Virus genome (UHGV): UHGV-0354376
From: a virus
Length of the DNA stretch: 13,577 bases
Strand: one strand, 5' to 3'
Numbering within the stretch: the stretch's first letter is position 1; the number at the start of each line of letters is the position of its first letter. Below the pieces are notes generated by a model, which saw only the letters and a list, made by a program, of their open reading frames with translations, had not been told where the DNA came from and made no database searches. Positions 4,016 through 13,323 of the stretch are shown here, in pieces. The position numbers and the translations under genes were made by a program.

Positions 4016-4044
4016 AATATACCTGTGAGTAATTTTTGTGTAAA
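4016..4044 (-). promoter_or_regulatory. Candidate leftward early promoter (pL-like): -35 TTTACA, 17 bp spacer, -10 TATATT on the minus strand
   Basis: Read from the reverse complement of 4016-4044. It lies in an AT-rich island and is flanked by copies of the TAAAT.ACCTGT motif that also occurs in the cI-cro intergenic region. Sequence-based prediction only. Confidence 0.3.
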
Positions 4045-4156
4045 TACCTGTTGGTATATTTTTATTTACCTTAATGGCAACTAATTGCTTTTAATTGGAT
4101 TTTATTTAAGTAGGCGAGGCGTGTTATGCTCAAAAAAACACCAGAAAGGGCTTGGT

Positions 4157-4363
4157 ATGGAACGTGACGAACTGGAAGAAGACCGTGCGGCATTCATAGC
4201 TGGCGAGATTGGCGGCGCAGTTGTCGAATTGATAATTGGCGGAGTAGTGATTGACCGTGATGCGATCGTCGATTGTTTGGAAAGAAAACGACGTGCGGTG
4301 GGTAATGTGATCCACAAAGGTGTTCTGCGTGACGCCGCTGCTATGGTGAGAAAAGGGCAGTAA
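4157..4363 (+). CDS. Small hypothetical protein (68 aa), acidic N-terminus and Gly/Val/Ile-rich core; moron-like gene convergent with the repressor
   Basis: The ORF track starts at a TTG at 4085; the in-frame ATG at 4157 has AAAGGG 8-9 nt upstream. Codon usage is enterobacterial-like. It is followed 1 nt after its stop by a strong hairpin and preceded by an AT-rich promoter-like region. The overlapping minus-strand ORFs are low complexity. Confidence 0.45.
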   Translation: MERDELEEDRAAFIAGEIGGAVVELIIGGVVIDRDAIVDCLERKRRAVGNVIHKGVLRDAAAMVRKGQ

Positions 4364-4364
4364 A

Positions 4365-4386
4365 AACCCGGCTCAGTGGCCGGGTT
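4365..4386. terminator. Bidirectional Rho-independent terminator hairpin between the convergent small gene and cI
   Basis: Perfect 8 bp inverted repeat AACCCGGC / GCCGGGTT with a 6 nt loop (TCAGTG). It is flanked by AAAAA on the 5' side (a U-tract for the minus-strand transcript) and a T-rich stretch on the 3' side. Confidence 0.55.
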
Positions 4387-4438: not shown

Positions 4439-5149
4439 CTACAGTTTATTGTAAGCTATTGATTCATGGAGTAGAGCTTTACCCATGATATACAGTTGTT
4501 CCTGATTTTCTTCAGTTATATACCAGTCTTTGTACACTGGATTATCGGACAGCACTGCAAGCTGCAAGCCCTGCATTTGTAATCGCTTCACGTGGAAGTG
4601 TTGTCCGAAAACGAACGCATAAACACCGTCCACCTTGAAATTTCTTATCGAAATATCGAAAAACAACCTGTCACCAGACTGGATGGTTGGGCACATGCTG
4701 TCGCCATCTACAGTCATTACTTTAACGTCATCCTGAGAACGATTCCCGAAGAGTGAACGAGCGTGCTCAGTGGTGAACTCAATAGCGTGTAGAACCTCAA
4801 CAAACTCAGAAATCATGAAAGACCCTGGACCTGCACTCACAGTAAGATCGAGAACTTCTACACGATAAGTGTCGATATTGCGGGCGGGTACATCAATATC
4901 CATATTTGAGGTTGGGCCAAGACCATCCAACCATCCTCTGCTGATTTTCAAAGCATCTTCGATCTGCCGAGCCGCCTGTTCACCAATATTCCGCTTATTA
5001 GGTTTACCAACAGGGTAAAGCATCCGAGAGACAACAGTCGGATCAAGCCCTGCATTTTCAGCAAACTCTTTCTGGGTTTTATAGCGAGTTACCAACTCCT
5101 GAAGTTTGAGGCGTCGTAACTCGAAGATGTCAGGCGATTCAGTTTTCAT
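4439..5149 (-). CDS. CI-like prophage repressor (N-terminal HTH, C-terminal S24 LexA-like autopeptidase domain)
   Basis: 236 aa ORF with an N-terminal HTH-like region (QKEFAENAGLDPTVVSRM) and a C-terminal S24 peptidase signature (GDSM serine motif and a downstream Lys in HVKRL). It is divergent from a Cro-like gene across a 99 bp AT-rich region. The near-absence of an SD upstream of the ATG would fit a leaderless pRM-type transcript. Confidence 0.9.
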   Translation of the reverse strand: MKTESPDIFELRRLKLQELVTRYKTQKEFAENAGLDPTVVSRMLYPVGKPNKRNIGEQAARQIEDALKISRGWLDGLGPTSNMDIDVPARNIDTYRVEVLDLTVSAGPGSFMISEFVEVLHAIEFTTEHARSLFGNRSQDDVKVMTVDGDSMCPTIQSGDRLFFDISIRNFKVDGVYAFVFGQHFHVKRLQMQGLQLAVLSDNPVYKDWYITEENQEQLYIMGKALLHESIAYNKL

Positions 5150-5156
5150 AATTCCA

Positions 5157-5224
5157 TCTTACTTAAATTTACTTCAAGGTAAATGACCTGTGAGTATTGA
5201 CATGTATTTACTTAAAGGTATATT
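5157..5224. promoter_or_regulatory. Immunity switch region: candidate operator repeats overlapping a pR-like promoter (-35 TTGACA 5197-5202, 16 bp spacer, -10 TATATT 5219-5224)
   Basis: Three copies of TTACTT(A/C)AA, at about 5159, 5169 and 5208. Two form imperfect palindromes: TTTAC-TTCAAG-GTAAA (5168-5183) and TTTAC-TTAAAG-GTATA (5207-5222). The 11-mer ACCTGTGAGTA (5186-5196) sits immediately before the consensus -35. The cro ATG follows at 5249 with an AGGAGG RBS. Confidence 0.45.
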
Positions 5225-5248: not shown

Positions 5249-5491
5249 ATGGAAACGTTAAGAAATTACCTAAACGCTTTGTCGCTCGAAAAACAGAGAG
5301 AATTTGCAGCACGATGCGAAACCTCTCTTGAGTACCTGCGTAAAGCCATTAGCAAAAAGCAAAAGTTGGGAGCTGCTCTATCTGTTTCTATCGAAACACA
5401 ATCTGGCGGCTCAGTTAGTAGAAAAAATCTTCACCCGGATGATTGGGAAAAGATTTGGCCTGAACTGGAGCATAAAAAAACAGCGGCATGA
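5249..5491 (+). CDS. Cro-like / YdaS-family HTH regulator
   Basis: 80 aa ORF divergent from cI with an AGGAGG RBS 6 nt upstream. The C-terminal motif GGSVSRKNLHPDDW resembles the YdaS-type Cro-like family as I recall it. The ATG at 5249 is preferred over the GTG at 5246 listed in the ORF track. Confidence 0.8.
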   Translation: METLRNYLNALSLEKQREFAARCETSLEYLRKAISKKQKLGAALSVSIETQSGGSVSRKNLHPDDWEKIWPELEHKKTAA

Positions 5492-5519: not shown

Positions 5520-6071
5520 GTGGGTAACGAACCAATCTGGAAAGTTGAACGTCAGCCAGTCTGGCTGGTGGTAGCGATTAAAAAAACGATTACCGATCTG
5601 CCTGGTGGATATGCCGAGGCGGCGGAATGGTTGGGGGTAACAGAGAACGCGCTGTTTAACCGTCTTCGTGTAGATGGCGACCAGATTTTCCCTATGGGAT
5701 GGGCGATGGTGCTACAGAAAGCCGCTGGCGTTAGCTACATAGCTGATGCGTTTTCTCGTCAAACAGATAACGGGATTCATATCCCTGGCGCAGCACCAGA
5801 AACAGAGAACGAAGAGATTGGCTTAAAGCTGGCTGAGCTGGTGGGCAGGCTTGGTGACTTGGTTAACGCATATCGTCGATACATCGATGATGGTGTGGTT
5901 GATAAAGGGGAATGGGACAGTCTGAACGAAATCGCCTATCAGTTCCGGGTAACGCTTATGACGTTTCTGAACCTGATTTCTCGAGTTTATTGCCTTCCAG
6001 AAAAGAGTGACGCCCGCGAGTGTGCAGCTCCGGGCGCCTTGGCGAACAACTCTTCGAGTATGGAGAAATAA
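5520..6071 (+). CDS. CII-like / YdaT-like regulatory protein with a putative HTH
   Basis: The ORF track runs from 5304, but a GTG at 5520 has AAGGGG 6 nt upstream and lies 29 nt after the cro stop. A putative HTH (AEAAEWLGVTENALFNRL) is present. Its position right after cro matches cII/ydaT-type genes; family assignment is tentative. Confidence 0.5.
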   Translation: MGNEPIWKVERQPVWLVVAIKKTITDLPGGYAEAAEWLGVTENALFNRLRVDGDQIFPMGWAMVLQKAAGVSYIADAFSRQTDNGIHIPGAAPETENEEIGLKLAELVGRLGDLVNAYRRYIDDGVVDKGEWDSLNEIAYQFRVTLMTFLNLISRVYCLPEKSDARECAAPGALANNSSSMEK

Positions 6072-6243
6072 TCCGCATGAGCAGTTTAACGGCTTTTGAC
6101 CGTCTACCGCAACTAAGGATGATCCCGGTTTCGGGTACTCCGTTGTTTCGGTATGAACGCAGATTATCAAACCGCTGGGTTCCGTGTAACCACAGTAGGG
6201 CGGTTTCAATTGTGGGGGTCTACAACCGGAGGGCAAAACGCCT

Positions 6244-6471
6244 TTGCGCGAACTTAACCGAAGGTTCAAAGACCACCGCGGAGTGCAAGTCCGTGTTATC
6301 CGCTGGGAGCCAGAAACACAGCGCGTTATCTATCTGCGTGATGGCTACCCACACGAATGCTTCAGCCCACTTGAGCAGTTCCGACGGAAATTCAGGGAAA
6401 TGAATAAATCGAGTAGTGTAAGCATTGAGAATCACTACCTAAATCAACCTGAAGGAAAAGACCATGACTGA
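6244..6471 (+). CDS. Hypothetical small protein (about 62-75 aa); start uncertain (TTG 6244 or GTG 6283)
   Basis: Protein-like composition (VRVIRWEPETQRVIYLRDGYPHECFSPLEQFRRKF). Its stop overlaps the ATG of the next gene (ATGACTGA). GGAGG lies 12 nt upstream of the TTG. It competes with an alternative frame at 6077-6403. Confidence 0.3.
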   Translation: MRELNRRFKDHRGVQVRVIRWEPETQRVIYLRDGYPHECFSPLEQFRRKFREMNKSSSVSIENHYLNQPEGKDHD

Positions 6472-6760
6472 AGCCGATATCGTATTTGATTACAAATTTA
6501 ACAGCCCATTACATCGTTTAATCATGTTGTTTATCCAAGTAAGCGGAAGCGGTGATGGGGGTAAAGAAAAGCTTATTTCAGATAAGAGATTTACAGACAT
6601 ATGCTGTTGCAGCTCAGCAGATTTTATAAGCGCTATCAATTACCTGACCGAAAACGGCTTTCTTTTGAGAAAAAATTACGGGATGCAGTTCGGTGAGGCT
6701 ACCAGCGGTTATGTCATTACTGTGCCGGATTGGTTAAGGAAGGAACCATGGGAACATTGA
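6464..6760 (+). CDS. Hypothetical protein (98 aa), AT-rich gene
   Basis: ATG with an AAGGAAAAG RBS. Its stop overlaps the start region of the replication gene. Codon usage is noticeably more AT-rich than neighbouring genes (TTA, ATA, AGA codons). A possible winged-helix-like segment (FISAINYLTENGFLLRK) is present. Confidence 0.55.
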   Translation: MTEADIVFDYKFNSPLHRLIMLFIQVSGSGDGGKEKLISDKRFTDICCCSSADFISAINYLTENGFLLRKNYGMQFGEATSGYVITVPDWLRKEPWEH

Positions 6761-7722
6761 TTCAGTTACTTGATCGTCCAATTGCTTACAACCCGGCTTT
6801 TGCCAAGCTGAGAGTTGGCAAAGTTAAAGCTGGCCCGGTTGCGGCTGTTTTTCTTTCGCAGATGGTCTACTGGCATAACCGTATGGATGGCGGCTGGATG
6901 TATAAGACCCAGGCAGATATTGCCAGCGAGACTGCATTAACCCGTGATGAACAGGAAACGGCTCGCAAACGTCTGATACAGCTTGGCGTTCTGGAAGAAG
7001 ATCGCCGTGGTGTCCCAGCAACGATGCACTACCGCATTAATCCTGAACGCCTGGAAGCGCTGCTGCTCGAAACTACGCAGTCAGTGAAGAAGGCCGCACC
7101 TCAGAACAAAACCAGATTGCGGAACATCCAGAATGTGGAAATGCCGCAATCTGGATTGGTGCAGTCCCGCAAACTAGATTGCGGTGATTCCACAAACAAG
7201 GATGTGGATACCCCGCAAACAAGTATGGGACAACCCAACGAACAAGCCTGCGGGGATCCCACAAACTTTCATACAGGAGATTACACAGAGAATACTCAGG
7301 AGAGTACACAGGATAAAAAAACTTATTGTCCGGTTGCGGCGCAACCAGACCCTGAAGTTGTGATTACCGACCAGGCAATTTTGGTTCTGACCCATTTGAA
7401 CCAGATCAGCGGATCCAGGTATCAGAAATCCAAAACATCCCTGGAGAATATCCGCGCCCGACTGCGTGAGGGATACAGCGTTGCAGACCTGCAACTGGTT
7501 ATCGACCTGAAGCATGAGCACTGGCACGAGAACGACGAGCAGTACCAGTACATGCGCCCGGAAACGCTGTTCGGCCCGAAGAAATTCGAGAGCTATCTGC
7601 AAAGCGCTACCCGCTGGGAGCAGAAGGGACGGCCTAAACGCGCTGACTGGGGGGCGAAAAAGCGCGATGTGATGACTTTTGGTCCGGTTGATACAACGAT
7701 TCCTGCGGGGTTCAGAGGATGA
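6748..7722 (+). CDS. Phage replication initiation protein (O-like; N-terminal winged-helix domain, low-complexity linker, conserved phage C-terminal domain)
   Basis: The ATG at 6748 is preceded by AAGGAAGG (the ORF track starts at 6730). The C-terminal region (ILVLTHLNQISGSRYQKSKTSLENIRARLREGYSVADLQLVIDLKHEHW...) resembles, from memory, the conserved phage replication-protein C-terminal domain. The gene contains an internal iteron-like repeat cluster. Confidence 0.75.
   Translation: MGTLIQLLDRPIAYNPAFAKLRVGKVKAGPVAAVFLSQMVYWHNRMDGGWMYKTQADIASETALTRDEQETARKRLIQLGVLEEDRRGVPATMHYRINPERLEALLLETTQSVKKAAPQNKTRLRNIQNVEMPQSGLVQSRKLDCGDSTNKDVDTPQTSMGQPNEQACGDPTNFHTGDYTENTQESTQDKKTYCPVAAQPDPEVVITDQAILVLTHLNQISGSRYQKSKTSLENIRARLREGYSVADLQLVIDLKHEHWHENDEQYQYMRPETLFGPKKFESYLQSATRWEQKGRPKRADWGAKKRDVMTFGPVDTTIPAGFRG
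7114..7266. repeat. Iteron-like repeat cluster inside the replication gene (candidate phage origin)
   Basis: At least seven copies of an 8-9 bp motif in both orientations: AGATTGCGG at 7114-7122, its exact reverse complement CCGCAATCT at 7144-7152, the perfect inverted repeat CCGCAA-N6-TTGCGG at 7167-7184, CCGCAAAC again at about 7213, and CCACAAAC at about 7191 and 7259. A short A-rich tract follows (about 7313-7321). Analogous to the lambda ori iterons within gene O. Confidence 0.45.
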
Positions 7723-8600
7723 CGTTAAACAAATATTGCCAGGCGCTGGCGGCACTACGTAGCCATCCAGCCCACGAATTGAAAGAAGTTGGTGATCAGT
7801 GGCGGACACCGGATCTGCTTTTCTGGGGTATCAACGCGCTATTTGGGCCATTAGTTCTGGACTTGTTTGCTGACGACGACAACGCGAAGTGCCCGGCATG
7901 GTACACCGCCGAAGATAATGCGCTGACGCAGGACTGGTCTGAACGTCTTACAGAACTGGGTGGCGCTGGTTATGGCAACCCACCGTATAGCCGTTCGCAG
8001 TATCACGAGAAACAGGCGATCACCGGCATGACGCACATCATGAACTACGCAGCAACCCAGCGCGAAAAGGGCGGGCGTTATGTATTTCTGATAAAAGCTG
8101 CGCCGAGCGAAACGTGGTGGCCGGAAGATGCCGATCACATCGTATTCATCCGTGGGCGCATTGGGTTCGATCTGCCTGTGTGGTTTATACCTGCTGACGA
8201 AAAACAGAAGCCCACCAGCGCGTTTTTTGCCGGTGCCATAGCTGTATTCGATAAGTCATGGCGGGGTGAGCGGTTCAGCTATATCAACCGCACAGAACTG
8301 GAGGAAAAAGGGCGGGCATTTATGGCTTTGGCTCAATTCGCCGTTGGTAAAGAGCAAACAATCGCAATGCAGGCAGCCAGGGAACCAGCAGCAACACCGG
8401 AAGCTGAGTCACGTATCTGGCCTCTCGAGGTTGGTCTGGTGTTCAACCAGGTGGAAGGCGTTGACGTATTGAGTGAGGCTCAGCAGAACAAGCTGAAAGC
8501 CAACATCAATCAACTCTGGCTGGAACGAACGGCCACCAGCGAAATCATCACAATTGCGCGTGGTCTTGTCGGCAGCATGCAGGGGGTAACCCATGCGTGA
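7719..8600 (+). CDS. Phage DNA N6-adenine methyltransferase (Dam family)
   Basis: 293 aa ORF with the N6-adenine MTase catalytic motif NPPY (GYGNPPYSRS) and N-terminal conserved residues (WRTPDLLF, DLFADDDN) as in phage Dam-family enzymes. Start and stop overlap the neighbouring genes (ATGA). Confidence 0.9.
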   Translation: MTLNKYCQALAALRSHPAHELKEVGDQWRTPDLLFWGINALFGPLVLDLFADDDNAKCPAWYTAEDNALTQDWSERLTELGGAGYGNPPYSRSQYHEKQAITGMTHIMNYAATQREKGGRYVFLIKAAPSETWWPEDADHIVFIRGRIGFDLPVWFIPADEKQKPTSAFFAGAIAVFDKSWRGERFSYINRTELEEKGRAFMALAQFAVGKEQTIAMQAAREPAATPEAESRIWPLEVGLVFNQVEGVDVLSEAQQNKLKANINQLWLERTATSEIITIARGLVGSMQGVTHA

Positions 8601-10590
8601 GATTATCGTTGATAACTTTGCTGGTGGCGGTGGCGCATCAACGGGTATTGAACTGGCAATAGGGCGCAGCGTGGATATTGCGATCAACCACGACGAAAAC
8701 GCCATTGCGATGCACAAGACGAACCACCCGGACACACTGCATTATTGTGAATCCGTATTTGACGTGGATCCGGTAGCCGCCACCGGCGGCAATCCTGTTG
8801 GCCTGGCATGGTTTAGCCCGGACTGCCGACACTTCTCAAAGGCCAAAGGCGCAAAGCCTGTGAAAAAAGAGATACGAGGTCTGGCCTGGATTGTTCTGCG
8901 ATGGGCACTGGCGAAGCGACCGCGCGTGATGATGCTGGAGAACGTGGAAGAGTTCAAAACCTGGGGACCGTTAATTGACATCCCGCCTAAACCTGATTTG
9001 TCGGAAGCCCTTATAGGGGATTTTATTGGCCCAGTTTACCCTGGCAATAGTCGCCCAGACCCTGCCCGCGCTGGCGAAACATTCAATGCTTTTGTCGGTA
9101 TGCTTTCCACTGGCATTCCTGCCGATCACTCGGCACTGTCAGAGGTTTGTGAGTTTCTGTCTATTGAAAGAGGTAGCGAGCAGGCGCAACAGCTGGTGGA
9201 TGGGCTTGGATATGATGTTGATTATCGCGAACTACGCGCGTGTGATTACGGCGCGCCGACGATCCGCAAACGCTTCTTCATGGTTATGCGCTGCGATGGC
9301 TGCCCAATCCAGTGGCCTGCTGTTACCCATGGGGATCCTAAGTCTCTGGAGGTGCAGAGCGGCAGGCTGATGCCATGGCGTACCGCTGCGGAATGTATCG
9401 ACTGGAATGTTCCGGCTCTGTCCATCTTCGACCGCAAAAAACCGCTGGCAGAGAACACTCTGAAGCGGATCGCACGCGGCATACAGCGCTTTGTTATCGA
9501 AAGTGCGTCGCCGTTTATCGTGAAGTGCAACCACACGAGCTCAAAAAATGCGTATGACGCTTTTCGCGGACAGTCACTGAATGAGCCATTACAGACCATT
9601 ACTAAAAAACTCGGCTACGCGTTAGCCGTTCCACACCTTACAAAATTCCGCACTGGCGCAACCGGGCAGCCCGTTACCGAACCTGTTCCGACGGTAACCG
9701 CTGGCACGTCAAAACGCCCGGGCGGGAACGGGCATGCTCTCGGGATTGTTGAGGCTGCATTGACACCATTCCTGGCGGGTAATGGTGGTAGTGAATACCA
9801 GGCTAAACCGCGCCCGCTGAATAAACCTGCTCATACCATTCTGAAGCAATCCCGAGCCTGTCTTGTTGCGCCAGTGATAGCCCGCCAGTTTGGGGCCAGC
9901 GTCGGCCACCGTGCAGACGAACCGAGCGCAACCATCACCGCTGGTGGTGGCGGTAAATCTCAACTGGTAACGCCTACGCTGATCCAGATGGGTTATGGCG
10001 AACGACCTGGACAAGAACCGCGTGTGCTGCGGCTGGATAACCCGCTGGGGACCGTTACTGCAGGCGGAAATAAATTTGCGACGGTGAGCGCATTCCTGGC
10101 GAAACACTACGGCGGTAACTATACGGGGCCGGGTGTCAGTATGGATGAACCCGCGCATTCAGTGACCACTGTCGACCATCATGCGGTAGTTGCCTCTCAT
10201 CTGGTGAAACTGCGTGGAACATGCCGCGACGGGCAACGCCTTGATGTGCCAATGCCAACAATCACTGCTGGTGGCCAACACGTGGGTGAGGTACGCACAT
10301 TTCTCGAGACGTATTGCGGGGAAAGTGACGATGAATGGCTGGTAACGATCGATGGGGTTAAATACCAGATCGTTGATATCGGAATGCGCATGTTGCAGCC
10401 GCATGAACTCTACAAAGCGCAGGGCTTCCCGGATGGATACGTTATTGATCAGGACTACCGTGGAAATCGCTATGCAAAAGATAAGCAGGTAGCCCGCTGC
10501 GGTAATGCGGTACCACCACCATTCGCCCGGGCGCTGGTTGAGGCAAATCTTCCGGAACTGTGTGCAGTGCAACAGCAGGAGGTGGCATGA
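8593..10590 (+). CDS. DNA cytosine-5 methyltransferase, large (665 aa), with an extended variable/target-recognition region
   Basis: C5-MTase motifs are visible: motif I FAGGGG, the catalytic Cys region SPDCRHFS, motif VI MLENVEEF (ENV), and a motif VIII-like PTIRKRFFMV. AGGGGG RBS 6 nt upstream. Stop overlaps the rusA start. Confidence 0.85.
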   Translation: MREIIVDNFAGGGGASTGIELAIGRSVDIAINHDENAIAMHKTNHPDTLHYCESVFDVDPVAATGGNPVGLAWFSPDCRHFSKAKGAKPVKKEIRGLAWIVLRWALAKRPRVMMLENVEEFKTWGPLIDIPPKPDLSEALIGDFIGPVYPGNSRPDPARAGETFNAFVGMLSTGIPADHSALSEVCEFLSIERGSEQAQQLVDGLGYDVDYRELRACDYGAPTIRKRFFMVMRCDGCPIQWPAVTHGDPKSLEVQSGRLMPWRTAAECIDWNVPALSIFDRKKPLAENTLKRIARGIQRFVIESASPFIVKCNHTSSKNAYDAFRGQSLNEPLQTITKKLGYALAVPHLTKFRTGATGQPVTEPVPTVTAGTSKRPGGNGHALGIVEAALTPFLAGNGGSEYQAKPRPLNKPAHTILKQSRACLVAPVIARQFGASVGHRADEPSATITAGGGGKSQLVTPTLIQMGYGERPGQEPRVLRLDNPLGTVTAGGNKFATVSAFLAKHYGGNYTGPGVSMDEPAHSVTTVDHHAVVASHLVKLRGTCRDGQRLDVPMPTITAGGQHVGEVRTFLETYCGESDDEWLVTIDGVKYQIVDIGMRMLQPHELYKAQGFPDGYVIDQDYRGNRYAKDKQVARCGNAVPPPFARALVEANLPELCAVQQQEVA

Positions 10591-10973
10591 AACTTGTGCT
10601 CCCGTTCCCTCCGAGCGTGAACACTTACTGGCGCGCCCCTAACAAGGGGCCGCTGGCCGGTCGTCACCTCATTAGCGCTGATGGTCGTAAATACCAGAGC
10701 GCTGCCTGCGTGGCGATCATTGAGCAATTACGACGTCTCCCGAAGCCATCGACTGAACTGGCAGCGGTAGAAATCACTCTGTACCCGCCGGATGCGCGCC
10801 GTCGGGATATCGATAATTACAACAAAGCCCTGTTTGACGCGCTGACGCATGCGGGTGTCTGGGAAGACGACAGCCAGATTAAGCGCATGCTGGTGGAATG
10901 GGGACCCGTTGTGCCGAAAGGTCGGGTAGAGATAACGATCAGCAGATATGAACCGGCGGGTGCAGCCGCCTGA
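10587..10973 (+). CDS. rusA: Holliday junction resolvase RusA
   Basis: The ATG at 10587 with an AGGAGGTGG RBS gives a 128 aa product. Clear similarity to E. coli RusA as recalled (PPSVNTYWR, RRRDIDNYNKALFDALT, GVWEDDSQ). Confidence 0.9.
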   Translation: MKLVLPFPPSVNTYWRAPNKGPLAGRHLISADGRKYQSAACVAIIEQLRRLPKPSTELAAVEITLYPPDARRRDIDNYNKALFDALTHAGVWEDDSQIKRMLVEWGPVVPKGRVEITISRYEPAGAAA

Positions 10974-10986
10974 TATGGAGAAAAGT

Positions 10987-11670
10987 ATGAGCCAATTAGC
11001 AACAACAGCATTAACCATGTCCAGCAGCGATATTGCTGAGCTGGTGGAATCACGACATGACCATGTTAAACGGTCCATTGAACGCCTGGCAGAGCGCGGT
11101 GTTATTGAACTCCCCCCAATGGGGGAAGTTAAAAATCACCTCAATCAGTCGGTATCGGTTTATCTGATAGGGAAGCGGGACAGTTATATCGTTGTCGCGC
11201 AGCTGTCGCCGGAGTTTACCGCGCGTCTGGTTGATCGCTGGCAGGAGCTTGAGCAGGCACAGCAGCAGACGATTCCTCAATCATTCTCTGAAGCCCTACG
11301 TCTTGCAGCTGACCTTGCAGAACAAAAACAGCAGTTGACTAACGAACTGGCTGCCGCGGCGCCGAAGGTAGCGTTTGTTGATCGGTACTGTACAGCCAGT
11401 GGGTCAATGTCATTCCGCCAGGTGGCAAAACTGCTTAAGGCCAAAGAGCCAGATCTGCGGTTATTCCTCCTTGAGAACGACATCATGTATCGCCTTGGCG
11501 GAACGATGACTCCACGGCATCAGCATATTGATGCGGGCCGTTTTGAAGTGAAAACCGGCACATCCGTGACCTCAAATCATGCATTCAGCCAGGCACGTTT
11601 CACGGCGAAAGGCGTGCGCTGGATTGGTGGACTGTGGGCAGAACACATTGTCAGGGGGCAGGTCGCGTGA
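10987..11670 (+). CDS. Phage antirepressor-like protein (Rha-like N-terminal region, KilAC/Ant-like C-terminal domain)
   Basis: The ATG at 10987 with GGAG 6 nt upstream gives 227 aa. The N-terminal region (SSSDIAELVESRHDHVKRSIERL) resembles Rha-type regulators and the C-terminal region (FRQVAKLL...MYRLGG) the antirepressor KilAC-type domain. Family calls are from memory. Confidence 0.7.
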   Translation: MSQLATTALTMSSSDIAELVESRHDHVKRSIERLAERGVIELPPMGEVKNHLNQSVSVYLIGKRDSYIVVAQLSPEFTARLVDRWQELEQAQQQTIPQSFSEALRLAADLAEQKQQLTNELAAAAPKVAFVDRYCTASGSMSFRQVAKLLKAKEPDLRLFLLENDIMYRLGGTMTPRHQHIDAGRFEVKTGTSVTSNHAFSQARFTAKGVRWIGGLWAEHIVRGQVA

Positions 11671-12656
11671 GGGCTTTGTTAACTCCTGAAGTAGCCCATC
11701 GTATGGGGATTGTGTTGTTCCGTCCCGGTGCGGAACTGATGCACATCTTCATGCGCGGTCGCGTTCTGCTAGAGCCTGAACCAGAAGAAATGGCGTCATT
11801 CAGTACCGGGGCTGTTCCTGCAGCCATTCAGCCGCTGGCTGAGGATCCGGTAATGCGGCAGGTCTTCGAGAATGAGCGGGTTATTCATCGCGCCGGTGGG
11901 CTGGCTTCCCTCGAGCAGTGGCTGAGTTCAAGATTTGAATGCCAGTGGCCACATTCATCGTGGCATGACAAGAACTTCACAACAATGCGGCACCCACCAG
12001 GAAGCATTCATCTGTGCTGGCATTGCGATCACACTTTGTCCGGGCAGCATACTAAGCAGCTTGCAGGTATAGCGGCAGGAAACTTGGTATCCTGGATTCT
12101 GGAAGTTATTCGTCGCGATTCTGGTTTTCCCGAGTCGCATGTACTGACGTTGCCGGAACTGTGCTGGTGGATGGTCAGAAACGACCTGGCTGATGTTATT
12201 CCGGAAAGCGTTGCGCACAAAGGGCTGCGCCTTCCGGATGAGAACATCCGCTCTGTCATGAGGGAAAGCGACATTGTGCCTTCAGCGTCTGCAACCAGCC
12301 TCGTGCAGGAGAAGGCGAAGAAGATCCTCACGCTCTCTGTTGATCCGGAGTCTCCAGAATCTTTCATGCTCAGACCAAAACGTCGTCGCTGGATAAATGA
12401 GACGTACACCCGCTGGGTTAAAACACAGCCCTGTGAGTGTTGCCGACGGCCAGCAGACGACCCCCACCACATGATTGGCCACGGGCAGGGTGGAATGGGT
12501 ACAAAAGCACACGACCTGTTTGTGATACCGCTGTGCAGAGCACATCACAACGAGTTGCATGCTGATCCCGTGGCATTTGAAGCGAAATACGATGACCAAT
12601 TGGTGTTGGTTTTTCGAGTTATAGATCGAGCGCTGGCAATTGGCGTGCTGGCATAA
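11634..12656 (+). CDS. DUF968-like prophage protein with a C-terminal Cys/His cluster; start uncertain
   Basis: Long ORF in the position usually occupied by DUF968/YdfU-like genes upstream of Q in enterobacterial lambdoid prophages. C-terminal cluster CECCRRPADDPHHM...CRAHHNELH. Candidate starts are the GTG at 11634, the GTG at 11667 (overlapping the upstream stop) and the ATG at 11703. Confidence 0.6.
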   Translation: MGRTHCQGAGRVRALLTPEVAHRMGIVLFRPGAELMHIFMRGRVLLEPEPEEMASFSTGAVPAAIQPLAEDPVMRQVFENERVIHRAGGLASLEQWLSSRFECQWPHSSWHDKNFTTMRHPPGSIHLCWHCDHTLSGQHTKQLAGIAAGNLVSWILEVIRRDSGFPESHVLTLPELCWWMVRNDLADVIPESVAHKGLRLPDENIRSVMRESDIVPSASATSLVQEKAKKILTLSVDPESPESFMLRPKRRRWINETYTRWVKTQPCECCRRPADDPHHMIGHGQGGMGTKAHDLFVIPLCRAHHNELHADPVAFEAKYDDQLVLVFRVIDRALAIGVLA

Positions 12657-12670
12657 ATGGAGAAAGCTTA

Positions 12671-13249
12671 ATGATTAATCCTTCTGAAGTTGGCAAGGCT
12701 GGTGAAATGGTGCGCCTTCGTACTCTGGAAAGCATCTGGATACAGGGTAAGTTGCGCATGTGGGGCCGCTGGTCTTATATCGGCGGTGGTAGTGGTGGGA
12801 ACATGTTTAACCAGCTTCTAGCGTCTGGGAAAATCACCAAGACAGCTATCAATGATGCGCTGCGCCGTATGAAGAAAGCGGGTATCAGCAAACCTGAACT
12901 GGAAGCATTCTTCAAAGAGATTCAGGAAGGGAATAATAAAAGCGGTCTGGCGTTCTGTACCGATGAAGAAGCGCTGGCCATCAACGCTGTACTCAGCGGT
13001 ATCCTTGTTCAGTCAGGGCATAAGAAGTTATACGCTCTTATTGAAGATCGTTATATCAAGCGCCTGAGCAAAAAAGCGATGGCCAGAGACTTAAATGAAA
13101 AACATCCTGAATGGTGTTTGCGAACCTGTGAAAGCCGGATTGATGTTTGGCTAAATGTAGCAGAATCGATGCTATACAAGCCAATGTGTGATGCATTCGG
13201 CACAAATAGCGACAGATTCTACTTGAATAATTGCGCGGAAAGTGCTTAA
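12671..13249 (+). CDS. Putative late-gene antiterminator (Q-like)
   Basis: 192 aa ORF with a GGAGA RBS, last in the nin-like region and immediately followed by a candidate promoter and terminator pair, the canonical Q / pR' / tR' arrangement. Assignment is by synteny and a vague family recollection, not by verified homology. Confidence 0.45.
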   Translation: MINPSEVGKAGEMVRLRTLESIWIQGKLRMWGRWSYIGGGSGGNMFNQLLASGKITKTAINDALRRMKKAGISKPELEAFFKEIQEGNNKSGLAFCTDEEALAINAVLSGILVQSGHKKLYALIEDRYIKRLSKKAMARDLNEKHPEWCLRTCESRIDVWLNVAESMLYKPMCDAFGTNSDRFYLNNCAESA

Positions 13250-13251: not shown

Positions 13252-13301
13252 TGTGATAAGCTCGGGACGTTAAAGCGAACTGAGCAACAGAACAAATAGT
13301 A

Positions 13302-13323
13302 ACCCGCCGCTGTGCGGGTTTTT
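13302..13323 (+). terminator. Rho-independent terminator (tR'-like)
   Basis: 6 bp stem ACCCGC/GCGGGT with a 6 nt loop (CGCTGT), followed by TTTTTGCGTTTC. It lies about 50 nt downstream of the candidate late promoter. Confidence 0.55.

Follow-up and report, generated by a model that had tools for sequence, protein, structure and literature searches.

Conserved stop/start overlaps in the early-right operon of the lambdoid prophage UHGV-0354376

The stretch of DNA analyzed here, termed the window, comprises 13,577 nucleotides (nt) of the UHGV virus genome UHGV-0354376 and carries a packed row of co-directional genes in which the stop codon of one gene repeatedly overlaps the start codon of the next. 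The row runs from a gene of the DUF4222 family through a small winged-helix gene, the replication initiator gene rep, the methyltransferase genes dam and dcm, the resolvase gene rusA, the antirepressor-like gene ant and a DUF968 gene to the gene of a Q-like antiterminator. This region forms the central part of an early-right (pR-type) operon; the lambdoid prophage to which it belongs is one of the e14/ST64B/SfV/phiNP group and very probably comes from Salmonella enterica. The geometry of its individual junctions is conserved far above the overlap baseline of related phages, and the overlapping genes are likely to be translationally coupled. Overlaps of this kind, with presumed coupling, have been described in lambdoid early-right and nin regions since the 1980s, and stop-on-start overlaps in the lambdoid early-right operon are already known, textbook architecture. 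The addition made here is a modest, quantitative one: the geometry of the junctions persists when mosaic partners change, and, in the case of dcm, the ribosome-binding site moves along with the gene that it serves. The overlaps themselves may carry less weight than two by-products, a DUF4222 reading frame within ymfM and a structured leader.

Stop/start junctions and their conservation

An earlier note on this DNA had placed five stop/start overlaps between positions 6464 and 10590, and all five are present there, as read from the sequence and confirmed by script (Table 1). The frames of the five overlapping genes match the mechanical list of open reading frames (ORFs), and all lie on the + strand. 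The same note had let the chain run on to 10990, and at this end no overlap exists: the rusA stop at 10973 and the ant start at 10987 are separated by a 13-nt spacer containing GGAG, and the chain of overlaps therefore breaks there. A sixth overlap, beyond the range of the note, joins ant to the DUF968 gene, which starts with GTG. Given as distances from stop to start with overlaps negative, the six are -8, -13, -4, -8, -4 and -4, and the remaining spacers do not exceed 14 nt across 6244-12671, with the chain interrupted at rusA>ant (+13) and at DUF968>Q (+14). The small gene had also been described as AT-rich, and its G + C fraction is indeed 0.40, compared with 0.48-0.58 in its neighbors.

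The number of overlaps carries little weight. The + strand has 50 copies of the tetranucleotide ATGA where 53 would be expected, and the motif by itself is uninformative. The deposited annotations of phiNP and ST64B contain 102 same-strand junctions, of which 40 overlap (39%) and 20 are exactly -4 (19.6%). Under this baseline a run of at least five overlaps among about 50 junctions has P ~0.24. With 39% of same-strand junctions overlapping in two annotated relatives, five consecutive overlaps are nothing unusual for such phages.

It is the geometry of each junction that stands far above this baseline. A set of 90 loci was assembled from 87 fetched related loci and three annotated regions, homologues were located by tblastn, and the junction distance was measured between the homologous start and the closest ORF stop before it. 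The rep>dam junction is -4 in 63 of 65 loci (20 distinct junction sequences) and dam>dcm is -8 in 31 of 32 (15 distinct sequences), with ant>DUF968 at -4 in 42 loci and the rusA>ant spacing at +13 in 37. Unrelated upstream contexts were defined as clusters at <65% identity over 120 nt. For rusA, whose upstream partners include dcm, several Dam types, rep and other genes, the -4 overlap is kept in 10 of 12 such contexts (P ~4e-6 against the 19.6% baseline), and rep overlaps its upstream gene in 11 of 14 (P = 0.003); the context classes represent different upstream genes, and the independence of the underlying events is not guaranteed.

Two of the overlapping genes, the small gene and dcm, are optional cassettes. 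The small gene has tblastn matches in 11 of 91 sequences (the 90 loci and the window). Both it and dcm are absent from the prophages of Escherichia coli Nissle 1917 and C3728, and dcm is also absent from loci L095-L097. When the window is compared with L095 (9092-9125), homology ends at 8551 and resumes at 10579. The exchanged block, 8552-10578, consists of the last ~14 dam codons, which carry the Shine-Dalgarno (SD) sequence of the next gene, together with dcm. The edges of the dcm cassette do not match the gene ends, and the two dam tails are still recognizably related. In the dcm case the initiation region travels with the downstream gene, and this could help to explain how overlaps survive mosaic exchange. 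A stronger interpretation would be that the overlaps are a selected, "plug-and-play" design and not passive compaction, the initiation region being held in the last ~14 codons of the preceding gene and moving with the downstream gene; accessory cassettes, for instance the C5-methylase or winged-helix gene, could therefore be inserted or removed with the hand-off of ribosomes kept. This is a tentative proposal and, on balance, a doubtful one. The -4 overlap of rusA in its unrelated contexts is compatible with it, and if it were true the output of the accessory cassettes would be tied to that of the replication initiator.

Assignment of the start codons

The starts chosen in the earlier note in preference to those of the longer ORFs are favored by SD strength, profile coverage, conserved N termini and the gene calls of four assemblies. 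SD strength is expressed as the energy of the duplex with the anti-SD sequence, for which the background mean is -3.0 kcal/mol and the 10% quantile -6.2 kcal/mol. The chosen starts have duplexes of -5.7 to -11.6 kcal/mol, the weakest being those of the small gene and dam (-5.7 kcal/mol each), and the values for rep, rusA, ant and the DUF968 gene are set beside those of the longer-ORF starts in Table 1. The DUF4222 gene has the SD sequence GGAGGG (-10.0 kcal/mol), and a start codon is found at the aligned column in 62 of 63 distinct relatives. In related junction contexts (25 distinct for rep, 33 for rusA) a start codon is likewise at or beside the homologous position.

It is very improbable that the overlaps are artefacts of start choice, with the true starts further downstream and short spacers between the genes. 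The point in favor of such later starts is that the family profiles of Dam begin only at residue 16-19, which leaves its N-terminal 15 residues without profile cover. At the protein level, however, the N termini are kept while the DNA varies, with the forms MTLNKY/MMTNKY/MNKY in Dam, MKLxLP in RusA and MxxLIQ in Rep. PHROG profiles align from residue 1 for the DUF4222 protein (where positions 1-55 of phrog_1343 align to residues 1-55), the DUF968 protein and Q, and the RusA profile aligns from residue 6. The catalytic motif I of Dcm (FAGGGG) begins at residue 9, so there is no room for a later dcm start. The independent gene calls of four NCBI assemblies give 75 amino acids (aa) for DUF4222, 98 aa for the small gene and 325 aa for rep, and they reproduce the -8/-13/-4/-8/-4 overlaps. 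For annotation purposes the start codons of six genes are fixed, and TTG 6730, GTG 10560, ATG 10948 and GTG 11634 are unsuitable.

The first junction hinges on taking the TTG-started DUF4222 ORF as the upstream gene instead of a ymfM-like ORF (6077-6403; phrog_1170; 39% identity to the K-12 e14 YmfM), which overlaps it out of frame, and this dependence counts against the chain as drawn. Among 63 distinct relatives the column variability of the DUF4222 frame in the overlap is 0.34/0.25/0.79 at codon positions 1/2/3, and the part covered by ymfM only is flat, with values of 0.54/0.50/0.60 and no periodicity. This pattern points to selection acting on the DUF4222 frame, and the ymfM-like ORF was rejected as the gene upstream of the chain on the basis of this codon-position variability. 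The same frame is present in E. coli K-12 (NC_000913.3; locus L093, 3823-4181), where an e14 DUF4222 ORF of 59 aa with a TTG start (Pfam 8.6e-19) is 85% identical to that of the window; it is unannotated and lies inside the gene labeled "cell division inhibitor YmfM." An alternative DUF4222 frame goes unmentioned in the paper in which ymfM was defined.

Translational coupling and the transcription unit

Stop and start codons overlap, as expected for termination-reinitiation, at the five junctions and at ant>DUF968, and an SD-like motif lies within the upstream gene before each downstream start. Reporter assays showed strict coupling for 13 of 14 overlapping pairs (Huber et al. 2019, PMC6728339). 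The commonest E. coli geometries are -4, -1 and -8, coupling is nearly abolished by spacers of ~20 nt, and pairs of the E. coli "+10" class are polycistronic and probably initiated independently (PMC10666635). The window pairs resemble the pairs of these studies (PMC6728339, PMC10666635) in their -4 and -8 geometries and in the intragenic SD motifs upstream of the downstream start, and the +13 and +14 spacings correspond to the "+10" class (PMC10666635). A difference is that the pairs of Huber 2023 (PMC10666635) are enriched for subunits of one complex and those of the window are not.

A contrast in accessibility separates the overlapped from the spaced starts. The opening energy of a ribosome-binding site was taken as the cost of opening positions -15 to +3 of the start in its local context. 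Overlapped starts in the window require 8.4-11.5 kcal/mol, with the exception of the AT-rich small gene (3.5 kcal/mol), whereas starts behind spacers require 3.6-6.9 kcal/mol (ant 3.6 kcal/mol); background coding sequence has 8.8 +/- 3.3 kcal/mol. Over 305 distinct junction contexts of the related loci the means are 10.2 (overlapped) and 7.0 (spaced) kcal/mol, and for the DUF968 gene alone they are 11.0 (overlapped, n = 31) and 7.9 (spaced, n = 17) kcal/mol. This contrast is consistent with overlapped genes relying on the upstream ribosome and spaced genes initiating alone.

Several points weigh against coupling. Every downstream gene has its own SD sequence, so de novo initiation is possible, and the 13-nt overlap of the small gene with rep is outside the geometries tested in the reporter studies (PMC6728339, PMC10666635). 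Among the five E. coli pairs in that work, bioBF, an ATGA pair, was uncoupled and menDH was only ~60% coupled (PMC6728339). The accessibility contrast could instead reflect composition, GC-rich coding sequence being compared with AT-rich spacers, and the 305 contexts are phylogenetically related, which inflates their statistics. Because composition may explain the contrast and the contexts are related, coupling at the window overlaps is graded as likely from this analysis.

The overlaps could also be a by-product of compaction and stop-codon drift, with each gene translated independently from its own SD sequence and no functional coupling, and this is judged unlikely. Drift of this kind is easy because, wherever the second codon of a gene begins with A, the upstream frame has a TGA at its disposal. 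The high frequency of overlaps in related phages and the unexceptional run of five fit such an origin, as do the uncoupled but overlapping bioBF genes and the presence of an SD duplex of -5.7 kcal/mol or stronger at all chosen starts. It accounts poorly for the retention of geometry in most of the unrelated upstream contexts of rusA and rep and across the 15-20 distinct junction sequences of dam and dcm. Overlapped starts moreover lie in RNA as closed as random coding sequence, in contrast to the spaced starts, and strict coupling was the rule among the overlapping pairs assayed (PMC6728339). A search of the literature found nothing pairing the nin region with translational coupling.

The best explanation of the whole, and a likely one, is a pR-type operon whose overlap-linked genes are translated by termination-reinitiation. 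Upon inactivation of the S24-type repressor, RNA polymerase would start at the pR-like promoter at 5197-5224 and transcribe, in order, cro, ymfL, the structured leader, DUF4222, the winged-helix gene, rep, the genes of Dam and the C5-methylase, RusA, Ant, DUF968 and Q. Between 6244 and 10973 every stop falls within or just past the next start, through overlaps of 8, 13, 4, 8 and 4 nt, and each downstream ribosome-binding site is encoded by the final codons of the upstream gene. A terminating ribosome would be held by the nearby SD sequence and restart at the adjacent AUG, and it would also melt local RNA structure covering the downstream start. Synthesis of the initiator, two methylases and the resolvase would in this way be tied to one initiation event, and the ribosome-covered mRNA should be shielded from Rho and nucleases. 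The 13- and 14-nt spacers before ant and Q have accessible SD sequences, and these two genes would probably be initiated independently.

The earlier note had read 6464-10990 as a single, translationally coupled transcription unit. The co-directional, packed genes and the lack of a convincing predicted internal signal agree with a single unit; its extent was understated, and its coupling is the likely reading reached above and not a direct observation. No non-coding space exists within 6244-10973, and the genes are at most 14 nt apart up to Q at 12671. The best site of the promoter scan lies between the S24/LexA-type repressor gene and cro and faces the early-right operon, and a hairpin with T tracts on both strands follows Q (Table 1). 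The predicted transcription unit would thus exceed the range of the note, extending from the pR-like promoter via cro and ymfL to Q and the terminator-like hairpin at 13301-13320; use of this promoter and the status of the operon as a single transcript are suggested by sequence features.

Prediction finds no convincing internal promoter or intrinsic terminator within 6464-10990. No + strand terminator hairpin in this range is better than -4.5 kcal/mol, and promoter-like matches number 8, compared with 9.7 +/- 3.2 in shuffles, with no excess. It is nevertheless conceivable, although improbable, that the region is not one unit and is subdivided by promoters within it, such as ones serving the methylase genes, or by Rho-dependent or conditional terminators. 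In the SfV record (U82619.2, locus L098) putative -35 and -10 signals for dam are annotated at 5362-5388 inside the preceding ORF, Rho-dependent terminators exist in the lambda nin region (Cheng et al. 1995, cited in PMC8022706) and are beyond in silico prediction, and the window itself contains a promoter-like site at 6498-6525 (9/12 consensus positions, the sole such + strand site in 6464-10990) as well as weak hairpins at 6604-6620 and 6831-6847. These observations weigh against an undivided transcript. The SfV dam, however, belongs to a different family unrelated to the window dam, and its promoter is just putative. The two hairpins reach only -4.2 and -4.5 kcal/mol compared with -10.4 and -14.8 kcal/mol for those after genes, no promoter-like match in the range exceeds 9/12, the total stays within the shuffle expectation, and the packed genes leave no non-coding space. 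As a separate observation, the strongest terminator-like site within the operon lies upstream of the range, inside ymfL at 5728-5749, where a 9-bp hairpin (-10.8 kcal/mol) is followed by GTTTTCTCGT on the + strand.

Gene identities, relatives and further features

Genes were identified with Pfam, PHROGs and NCBIfam profiles, and their coordinates are collected in Table 1 with those of the junctions, the start codons and the transcription signals. The order of the repressor, cro, rep and Q genes fits that of a lambdoid early-right region.

Table 1. Genes, stop/start junctions, start codons and predicted transcription signals of the window (matches are given with their E values; energies of start codons are SD duplex energies)
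Feature	Position	Strand	Details
S24/LexA-type repressor gene	4439-5149	-	Pfam Peptidase_S24 4.5e-17; divergent from early-right operon
Predicted pR-like sigma-70 promoter, TTGACA-16-TATATT	5197-5224	+	11/12 consensus positions; best of scan
cro-like gene	5249-5491	+	
YmfL gene	5520-6071	+	GTG start; NF041471 5.9e-39
DUF4222 gene, 75 aa	6244-6471	+	TTG start; Pfam DUF4222 7.2e-17; phrog_1343 1.1e-32
DUF4222 > small gene, ATGACTGA	6464-6471	+	8-nt overlap; ATG of 98-aa gene, DUF4222 TGA 6469-6471
Small winged-helix gene, 98 aa (predicted fold)	6464-6760	+	phrog_4617 "replication initiation protein," profile 7-90 of 223, 6e-10
Small gene > rep, ATGGGAACATTGA	6748-6760	+	13-nt overlap; ATG of rep, small-gene TGA 6758-6760
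rep, replication initiator, 324 aa	6748-7722	+	O-like N-terminal domain and Phg_2220_C C-terminal domain
rep start	ATG 6748		-7.5 kcal/mol; longer-ORF TTG 6730, -2.6 kcal/mol
rep > dam, ATGA	7719-7722	+	4-nt overlap
dam, phage N6-adenine methyltransferase (PF05869), 293 aa	7719-8600	+	Pfam 6.4e-44; TIGR01712 1.8e-60
dam > dcm, ATGCGTGA	8593-8600	+	8-nt overlap
dcm, C5-cytosine DNA methyltransferase, 665 aa	8593-10590	+	PF00145 4.5e-20 in 3 stretches; phrog_23072 8.7e-129
dcm > rusA, ATGA	10587-10590	+	4-nt overlap
rusA, RusA Holliday-junction resolvase (PF05866), 128 aa	10587-10973	+	Pfam RusA 4.3e-16
rusA start	ATG 10587		-11.6 kcal/mol, SD AGGAGG; longer-ORF GTG 10560, -5.6 kcal/mol, poor 14-nt spacing
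ant, Rha/KilAC antirepressor-like gene	10987-11670	+	Pfam ANT 1.7e-24; Phage_pRha 1.2e-10
ant start	ATG 10987		-6.4 kcal/mol; longer-ORF ATG 10948, -2.9 kcal/mol
ant > DUF968, GTGA	11667-11670	+	sixth overlap, beyond the range of the earlier note; DUF968 start = GTG
DUF968/HNH-like gene, 329 aa	11667-12656	+	GTG start; phrog_96 1.7e-155, residues 1-329 to profile 1-334
DUF968 start	GTG 11667		-9.4 kcal/mol; longer-ORF GTG 11634, -5.2 kcal/mol
Q-like late antiterminator gene	12671-13249	+	phrog_753 9.5e-69; last early-right gene, 14-nt spacer before
Hairpin with T tracts on both strands	13301-13320		-10.4 kcal/mol; downstream of Q; bidirectional, intrinsic-terminator-like

The Dam protein scores 150 bits against the Pfam cut-off of 28.1; in close relatives Dam occurs as 292/293-aa and 439/440-aa forms. 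Dcm (Pfam DNA_methylase 72.8 against a cut-off of 22) and RusA (Pfam 60.1 against 22.8) also exceed their family thresholds, and they fall below the stricter thresholds of two NCBIfam models, with 53.6 against 100.65 for the dcm model and 69.6 against 200 for the RusA exception model. Rep matches Pfam Phg_2220_C (1.6e-23), phrog_428 (1e-67) and phrog_9773, "replication initiation O-like." NCBIfam gave no match for the small gene, DUF4222 or the ymfM-like ORF. The whole window has no Rfam match at gathering thresholds, and ARAGORN found neither tRNA nor tmRNA in it. The six longest - strand ORFs within the region were rejected as genes and treated as shadow ORFs because none matched a Pfam family.

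The AlphaFold model of the 98-aa protein has a predicted local distance difference test (pLDDT) score of 75.8 and shows the order H-H-H-H-E-E of helices and strands. Its top matches in the PDB are weak and are N-terminal domains of RepA-type initiators (4pql/4pt7/5kbj; E 4e-3, template modeling (TM) score 0.59), so that the model suggests a stand-alone winged helix resembling the N-terminal DNA-binding domain of a replication initiator. The idea that the small gene is a duplicated initiator N terminus of the neighboring rep was discarded, as BLASTP of the small gene against rep gave no similarity. Among 5.8 billion sequences the protein has just 8 protein clusters, one of which, at 99% identity, carries the name Salmonella enterica, and the exact sequence is found in 1251 assembly-index blocks, one of the NCBI assemblies carrying it being GCA_976942615.1. 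The probable Salmonella origin of the window was deduced from this cluster and from the exact-protein matches in NCBI assemblies. An invariant CCC motif and a GDGGKEK loop were also noted in this protein.

Among annotated elements the window stands nearest to Citrobacter phage phiNP, Salmonella phage ST64B, Shigella phage SfV, the cryptic prophage e14 and the E. coli Nissle 1917 prophage; a megablast search against complete E. coli genomes and GenBank phages returned no record covering at least 80% of the region. These relatives share the order repressor/cro/ymfL/DUF4222/rep/Dam/(dcm)/RusA/Ant/DUF968/Q with the same overlaps, and the geometries are -4/-8/-4 in phiNP and -11/-4/-4 in the E. coli Nissle prophage. 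What sets the window apart from the prophages of E. coli Nissle 1917 and C3728 is its possession of the 98-aa winged-helix gene and of the gene of the 665-aa C5-methylase.

ATGA overlaps are typical of the nin regions of all lambdoid phages (PMC8022706). As in the lambda ren-ninA-H-Q region and the nin regions of P22 and phage L, packed co-directional genes with ATGA overlaps are placed between the replication genes and Q; both regions end in a Q-type antiterminator, and RusA is the functional counterpart of the lambda Rap/NinG Holliday-junction resolvase. Unlike the lambda nin region, the window has Dam, the C5-methylase, Ant and DUF968 in place of ninA-H, and its overlaps begin already in the replication module (DUF4222/winged-helix/rep). 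A search for the N/nut/tR features of lambda found no N-like gene among the ORFs, no nut sites and no strong intrinsic terminator from rep to Q; these features belong to lambda proper and not to the whole lambdoid group.

The leader is formed by the 172 nt between ymfL and DUF4222 (6072-6243) and is without coding periodicity. Conservation of three stems, 6089-6103, 6107-6151 and 6190-6215, extends over 19 diverse relatives and includes compensatory changes. In the alignment 80.7% of cells are paired, compared with 32-42% in slid controls, and changes on both sides of a pair occur in 22 cells, compared with 8.2 in shuffles. Folding of the single sequence 6061-6249 gave no stability above shuffles (z = +0.31). 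The homologous stretch of SfV is annotated "immunity region." Possible identities of the leader are an antisense RNA of the OOP type and an immunity element that acts through termination. On the - strand, the promoter-like sequence GTTACA-16-GATAAT occupies conserved columns at 6190-6163.

Within rep, iteron-like repeats are present at ~7106-7270 as at least four copies of TCCCGCAAACT with 23/46-nt spacing and inverted partners. The stretch 7106-7350 also contains two CAGGAGAxTACACAG repeats, an A-rich stretch and a palindrome with 11-bp arms at 7328-7350; it lies in the linker-coding part of rep and has a high AT skew (0.34). These elements are arranged like the lambda origin inside gene O, and an origin inside rep is likely.

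Outside the operon, between the leftward early genes and the repressor gene, a + strand ORF of 92 aa (4085-4363) precedes a hairpin that is stronger than any other in the window (4365-4386, -14.8 kcal/mol), and promoter-like sites are found near it (region 4016-4127). The short ORF and its hairpin (4085-4386) could be a moron-type insertion.

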